Positions 33,077-33,152 of a DNA stretch of 64,000 nucleotides are shown here, piece after piece (the first letter of the stretch is position 1; the number at the start of each line of letters is the position of its first letter). The position numbers and the translations under genes are program-made. Source of the DNA: Clostridia bacterium (GTDB lineage Bacteria > Bacillota > Clostridia > Oscillospirales > CAG-272); NCBI GenBank assembly GCA_017450965.1, contig JAFSSQ010000080.1, forward strand, positions 19,330 to 83,329. The letters run 5' to 3'. The notes below the pieces were generated by a model. It was not told the DNA's origin and searched no databases. It was given only the letters and a program-made list of their open reading frames with translations.

Positions 33077-33152
33077 TGGGATGTAGCCAAGCGGTAAGGC
33101 ACCAGACTATGACTCTGGCATTTCGTCGGTCCGAATCCGGCCATCCCAGCCA
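33077..33152 (+). tRNA. Non-canonical tRNA: tRNA-Gln-type scaffold with anticodon AUG (possibly a pseudo-tRNA)
   Basis: The hand-folded cloverleaf has these parts:
- Acceptor TGGGATG/CATCCCA (U1-A72), G73 and an encoded CCA.
- D arm GCCAAGCGGTAAGGC.
- Anticodon stem CCAGA/TCTGG with loop CTATGAC (A34 U35 G36).
- A 6-nt variable loop.
- T stem GTCGG/CCGGC with loop TCCGAAT (C at position 55). Confidence 0.6.

Follow-up and report, generated by a model that had tools for sequence, protein, structure and literature searches.

Among the classical tRNAs with a changed anticodon are suppressors. The E. coli amber suppressor supE (glnV) is a tRNA-Gln whose anticodon has changed from CUG to CUA, and glyT and glyU are sources of missense suppressors; classical anticodon-mutant suppressors of this sort arise in genes that are backed by another copy. 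The gene described here resembles them in that a single anticodon base has changed, the identity of the body is kept and a new codon is predicted to receive the old amino acid, but it differs in that no back-up copy is visible, the change lies at position 34 rather than 36, and both charging and suppression are here predictions. The same anticodon, AUG, has been engineered in E. coli by Schmitt, Tittle and Fisk (2024, PMC11066159). Their tRNA has an orthogonal M. jannaschii body and is charged with Tyr, whereas the gene here has a tRNA-Gln body; with an Arg2-like loop it is about half inosine-modified, whereas the loop here has C38, a change of the kind that blocks TadA. In the same study, the engineered AUG tRNA with unmodified A34 favoured CAU to CAC at a ratio above 95:5, A34 tRNAs read A-ending codons worst, and TadA no longer modified the AUG tRNA in E. 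coli once position 32, 37 or 38 had been changed (PMC11066159). Of all the genes compared, the tRNA-Gln(UUG) genes of two same-genus sister species (hereafter G002 and G006) and of a strain assembled as ERZ28653721 are nearest: they share with the present gene 75 of 76 nucleotides, C55, a 6-nt variable loop, the site behind recR, the terminator and the hairpin arrays, and they differ from it in having T34 where it has A34.

The gene lies in a 64,000-nucleotide window, the whole stretch of DNA that was analysed, from the metagenome-assembled genome GCA_017450965.1 of a Clostridia bacterium. The features of the locus are as follows.

32481..33074, + strand: recR, last gene of a dnaX-ybaB-recR row, with Pfam RecR domains; its stop lies 2 nt before the tRNA
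33077..33152, + strand: tRNA gene with tRNA-Gln body, anticodon ATG and encoded CCA (ARAGORN, Rfam, tRNA-Gln covariance model, alignment)
33109..33109, + strand: position 34 (wobble), A here and T in every orthologue; the sole private base of the gene (alignment)
33119..33124, + strand: 6-nt variable loop CATTTC (ARAGORN structure)
33131..33131, + strand: C at T-loop position 55, a lineage trait; same loop in TTG orthologues
33153..33188, + strand: terminator-like hairpin right after the CCA end, a 16-pair stem followed by a T run

ARAGORN makes a single call at 33077-33152 (+), labelled tRNA-His(atg), and Rfam RF00005 scores the gene at 56.2 bits against a gathering score of 29. All stems are intact in the ARAGORN structure: the acceptor stem begins U1-A72, G2-C71, G3-C70, the discriminator is G73, G10 is present and CCA is encoded; the D arm reads GCC-AAGCGGTAA-GGC and the anticodon loop CTATGAC, in which 33109 is A34, and the T arm has the stem GTCGG/CCGGC and the loop TCCGAAT, whose C55 is 33131. 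The acceptor-stem pairs, G73 and G10 are those of a tRNA-Gln that is a substrate of glutaminyl-tRNA synthetase (GlnRS), and U35 and G36 are present, A34 being the departure from the YUG anticodon of bacterial tRNA-Gln. By the marks of tRNA-His the gene fails twice, as it has neither G-1:C73 (the base before +1 is A, at 33076, and the discriminator is G) nor the anticodon G34-U35-G36. An earlier note, made from the letters of the window, had described a tRNA-Gln-type scaffold bearing A34 and hence anticodon AUG, and every hallmark that it listed is indeed there. The 'His' label given by ARAGORN describes the paired codon alone.

We searched for the 76-nt gene in 41 genomes (this genome and 40 relatives) and obtained matches in 28. 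The anticodon is TTG or CTG in all 30 of the loci fetched from relatives. The loci of the sister species (G002:C26:4650-4725 and G006:C9:24053-24128) are identical to the gene over 75 of 76 nucleotides, the sole mismatch being T34, and the flanks are 93% identical to the window in G002 and 85% in G006. In both species the gene starts 2-3 nt past the recR stop, and a JGI metagenome contig (L031) has the same junction. A tRNA-Gln covariance model, built from 16 tRNA-Gln(UUG) orthologues, gives the gene 100.9 bits, T34 orthologues 102.7 bits and the other tRNAs of this genome at most 49.4 bits. On the strength of the near-identity, the recR synteny and the covariance scores, we regard the body of the gene as orthologous, rather than paralogous, to a tRNA-Gln(UUG) that is strongly conserved. 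Within the genus, four relatives yielded the gene, each with one gene of the UUG type, and here, too, tRNA-Gln(UUG) is apparently single-copy. The earlier note had itself held that normal UUG anticodons in orthologues would speak against a deliberately non-canonical tRNA, and normal UUG anticodons are what the relatives have. The gene is very probably the tRNA-Gln(UUG) that is usual in the clade, altered privately at position 34, rather than an evolved non-canonical tRNA, a decaying paralogue or a partner of the neighbouring arrays. It is no new kind of tRNA; what sets it apart is a strain-level mutation or a base-call artefact at one base.

Three deviations from canonical tRNA-Gln had been pointed out beforehand, namely A34, C55 and the variable loop. 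All three are present, but A34 alone is private, since C55 and the 6-nt loop are shared with TTG orthologues. The T loop TCCGAAT recurs in the TTG orthologues L002, L003, L004, L005, L007, L016, L031 and L033, and TCCGACT stands in L018; C55 is common to TTG orthologues in eight relatives' genomes, to the JGI contig and to the contig of the T-allele strain (L033). A 6-nt variable loop is present in 12 TTG orthologues. As both features occur in functional orthologues, neither is to be read as decay. C55 is also found in tRNA-Val(gac) and tRNA-Gly(tcc) of this genome, G002 and G006, and we take it to be an unusual yet inherited and tolerated trait of the lineage, with no sign of decay. At a position usually called invariant, C is therefore tolerated and inherited in three different tRNAs of the clade. 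In this genome 3 of 34 tRNAs have C55 instead of the near-universal U; the two besides the present gene, tRNA-Val(gac) at C79:24332-24408 and tRNA-Gly(tcc) at C85:14526-14599, are 100% identical in G002 and G006, and tRNA-Gly genes of two other families have C55 sporadically. Loss of TruB as the origin of C55 was rejected in view of two TruB-family matches over cut-off in this genome (C86:544-1167 and C23:17771-18376).

The genome contains glnS (TIGR00440, 687.6 bits, over cut-off), and no match to gatB (TIGR00133) was found in it; with GlnRS present and GatB undetected, tRNA-Gln would be charged directly. In its normal state the tRNA-Gln(UUG) would probably be co-transcribed with dnaX-ybaB-recR, charged directly by GlnRS, and would read CAA and, by wobble, CAG. 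The determinants of E. coli GlnRS are the acceptor stem, G73, the 10-25 pair, U35 and G36, and those of bacterial tRNA-His are G-1 and C73 (PMC9976931). In the present gene the acceptor-stem pairs, G73, G10, U35 and G36 are intact. Position 34 lies within the anticodon that GlnRS reads, and charging of the A34 form may be weakened. Co-adaptation of the synthetase to A34 was rejected, the GlnRS protein (550 aa, encoded here at C39:50710-52359) being identical in all three strains, A and T alike, and charging by the histidyl enzyme was rejected because the gene has neither G-1 nor C73. As to the canonical tRNAs that the earlier note proposed to look for elsewhere in the genome, tRNA-His(gtg), with discriminator C, is present on contig C11, but a tRNA-Gln(UUG) or tRNA-Gln(CUG) was not found.

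A TadA substrate has the loop C32-U33-A34-C35-G36-A37-A38, as in CTACGAA of the genome's own tRNA-Arg(ACG), whereas CTATGAC has U35 and C38. Inosine at position 34, offered previously as a way to a broader reading, was discarded on account of this unlike loop, C38 in particular, and A34 probably stays unmodified. The predicted decoding is of CAU, as Gln if the tRNA is charged, and no longer of CAA. The allele should be very harmful, with CAA unread and CAU perhaps read as Gln. Among ORFs no shorter than 300 aa (a rough set with some spurious frames) CAA occurs 2345 times against 14250 for CAG, and CAU makes up about 9 codons per 1000.

No second tRNA-Gln, whole or partial, was found in this 98%-complete genome by ARAGORN, the tRNA-Gln covariance model or blastn-short. 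The tRNA-Gln(CTG) locus of G002 and G006 would fall about 1.8 kb past the end of contig C73, and all three assemblies of the strain break inside nrdD before that locus, leaving an assembly gap; an approach from the trxB-like gene next to it met contig ends inside nrdD in the two other assemblies as well. A C34 tRNA would not read CAA by the established wobble rules. Phages of Agathobaculum, among related gut Clostridia, carry tRNA-Gln genes, and a phage-borne tRNA-Gln is a possible route of compensation. A lethal allele cannot make up the majority, CAA is used, and no further tRNA-Gln(UUG) was found, so that a real A34 would need compensation lying outside what we see.

Concerning the gap itself, the three assemblies disagree at the contig ends in nrdD, the anaerobic ribonucleotide reductase gene (C73:1-128, L111 1-281 and L110 1-255, one from each assembly): over its initial 281 nt L111 shares only about 75% identity with C73, and over its initial 128 nt C73 gives no alignment to G002. 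These ends are probably chimeric, in a conserved gene shared with other species of the metagenome. In this genome 34 tRNA genes are assembled, and none was found for Asn, Asp, Cys, Phe, Tyr, Ile, Gly(gcc) or Gln(ctg); in sister species (L037, L038) a Val-Asp-Phe-Gly-Cys row stands at contig ends, and here contig C59 ends directly behind Val(tac), which interrupts the row.

Exact-protein look-ups yielded contigs from two further assemblies of what is essentially one strain, and the strain differences were polarized with G002 and G006 as outgroups. Apart from this assembly, the A34 allele occurs in one that is near-identical, ERZ28019071; all other orthologues have T. Contig L033 of ERZ28653721 (XIEF21-1_SAMN15829943) equals window positions 30133-33282 (3150 bp) except for T at 33109, and about 58 kb of comparison with that assembly yielded 7 internal differences from this genome. 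Contig L032 of ERZ28019071 equals window positions 30072-35571 without any difference, A at 33109 included; over about 34 kb, ERZ28019071 differs from this genome at C73:3247, C73:8370 and C39:53638, and at all three sites it agrees with ERZ28653721. With the outgroups, T is ancestral at 33109, ERZ28653721 is derived at 24168, and this genome is derived at 28232 and C73:8370. The simplest tree of these sequences would be ((this genome, ERZ28019071), ERZ28653721), for which A34 is the sole shared-derived site found in the first pair; this genome has three or four private changes besides. An artefact in which all strain differences are A was rejected, as A is ancestral at 24168.

The contigs of ERZ28019071 are 4-11 kb long, compared with the 93.6-kb contig here, and neither end of L032 (30072 and 35571) falls on a repeat. 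Short contigs and a tRNA-bearing contig that does not end at repeats point to different read sets, and suggest that ERZ28019071 is the shallower one. Two distinct consensus sequences carry A34, so that a random consensus error appears unlikely. The two A-bearing assemblies may nevertheless come from one study or host and share a systematic error or overlapping reads. Three private differences of this genome are G:C-to-T:A transversions (C73:3247, C73:8370 and C39:53638; V-to-F, synonymous and D-to-E), and window position 28232 is a private synonymous G-to-A at a site outside the ERZ28019071 contigs. Oxidative damage during library preparation produces G:C-to-T:A changes as a class, and the private single-base differences could be artefacts of that type or the trace of a real mutational bias. 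Beyond the strain, the exact 76-mer with N at position 34 had one match in 241 million metagenome records, with T and from another species, and the anticodon arm with A or G at position 34 had one other match in 185,579 species genomes, a 5'-truncated fragment.

Two hairpin arrays adjoin the tRNA (window 33189-33714), and Rfam Gut-1 (RF01706) scores 70.2 bits at 33502-33576. Gut-1 matches number 28 across the genome, with examples at C1:7005-7079, C30:22806-22872, C70:25246-25320 and C62:1940-2015; 11 of the 28 lie within about 350 nt downstream of nine tRNA genes, namely Leu-caa, Trp, Lys, Pro-tgg, Pro-cgg, Ser-gga, Val-cac, Arg-ccg and the present gene. The sequence behind the normal tRNA-Gln(CTG) of G002 matches the same Gut-1 elements, the normal-anticodon orthologues of G002 and G006 also have arrays behind them, and the T34 strain contig has the same first part of the array. 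Because Gut-1 follows nine different tRNA genes, the arrays are not tied to this one, and the gene is not a specific, co-varying part of a Gut-1 cassette.

We think it somewhat probable (roughly 0.6) that A34 is a real, non-adaptive, strain-level mutation that is tolerated by means outside our view. On this account, one very recent T-to-A transversion would have turned the anticodon from UUG to AUG, and the A is taken as real DNA of a sub-lineage, not an error, because it recurs in two assemblies that are not identical at other sites. The mutant would keep the GlnRS determinants as defined in E. coli (acceptor stem, G73, U35 and G36), would lack the His determinants G-1 and C73, and, if still charged, would insert Gln at the His codon CAU and no longer read CAA. 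Its persistence would imply compensation: tRNA-Gln(UUG) might come from a second source that the assembly lacks, the CUG paralogue in the gap might be altered, or the population might be mixed. Alternatively, the true DNA has T at 33109, and the A arose by consensus or base-calling error, library damage or shared reads. Biology speaks against a viable A34 cell, as the sole tRNA-Gln(UUG) found is affected, CAA is used and A34 performs worst on A-ending codons; T stands in every relative and in a near-identical strain; and the three private G:C-to-T:A differences hint at noise in this consensus. Against an error, however, the A is repeated in ERZ28019071, whose consensus differs at three other sites and whose short contigs, with ends off repeats, suggest different reads. 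T-to-A inside TTT is not known as a typical systematic error of short reads. We regard an artefact as unlikely, if still a serious contender.

Were the A real, it could also be adaptive: a missense suppressor or recoding tRNA whose insertion of Gln at CAU compensates for a Gln-to-His mutation or changes the proteome, with CAA served by a gene outside the assembly. This would suit the occurrence of A34 in two slightly diverged genotypes of a lineage that has persisted, the intact GlnRS determinants other than position 34, the tRNA-Gln(CTG) locus hidden in the gap of all three assemblies, and the tRNA-Gln genes of Agathobaculum phages. It sits badly with the failure to find a second tRNA-Gln, the unchanged GlnRS, the absence of A34 from relatives and from 241 million metagenome records (the 185,579 species genomes gave one truncated fragment), and the cost of proteome-wide His-to-Gln errors at about 9 CAU per 1000 codons. 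We find it improbable, and we give equally little credence to its specific form, in which a viable sub-lineage has turned its sole chromosomal tRNA-Gln(UUG) into a GlnRS-charged AUG mistranslator and reads CAA by an unseen phage-borne or remodelled gene. The two explanations in the earlier note fit less well still, even though its core reading, a tRNA-Gln body carrying A34, holds. A decaying tRNA-Gln paralogue would account for an anticodon mismatched to its body, and C55 and the long variable loop look degenerate in isolation; but no other copy was found with which the gene could be redundant, it is the syntenic orthologue of a functional gene, C55 and the 6-nt loop belong to functional orthologues, and one substitution in 76 nt with all stems intact contrasts with 7-15% divergence in the flanks. 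Such decay is very improbable. Hardly credible at all is a deliberately non-canonical, non-translational tRNA-like element working with the hairpin arrays. The gene does directly adjoin two arrays, and the 70.2-bit Gut-1 match is close by, but arrays follow eight other tRNA genes as well as the normal tRNA-Gln(CTG) of G002, the T34 strain has the same first array part, and the UUG orthologues of G002 and G006 have arrays behind normal anticodons, so that A34 and arrays do not co-occur across genomes. In our view, the A34 mutation has left the tRNA defective or mis-specifying rather than created an evolved device.

We stress that a 'His(atg)' tRNA in a metagenome-assembled genome is here a tRNA-Gln with one changed base, a caution for annotation; an inference about codon tables or tRNA repertoires drawn from such a call would be wrong. 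If the A is real, the gene would represent a rare natural change of an anticodon to the codon of another amino acid, in a seemingly essential, single-copy bacterial tRNA, and it would raise the questions of how the strain reads CAA and whether His-to-Gln errors are tolerated.

Regarding expression, hairpins analogous to the terminator-like one stand 3' of the tRNA-Gln orthologues, and no promoter-like site was found in 32700-33077, the 377 nt upstream of the tRNA. For its expression the tRNA-Gln(UUG) seems to rely either on the dnaX-ybaB-recR transcript or on a promoter within recR. In two other members of the genus (G003 and G020), the tRNA-Gln(UUG) is located elsewhere, behind a TATAAT-like sequence.

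The truncated fragment that shares the anticodon arm is a tRNA-Gln remnant in a Desulfosporosinus MAG (DASRMG010000240.1; L044 6240-6300), for which ARAGORN makes no call. It spans the D loop to a degenerate 3' end, also reads ATG, and lies between a Pro-Arg-His tRNA row and a tRNA-Leu; it may be an old duplicate left at an integration site.
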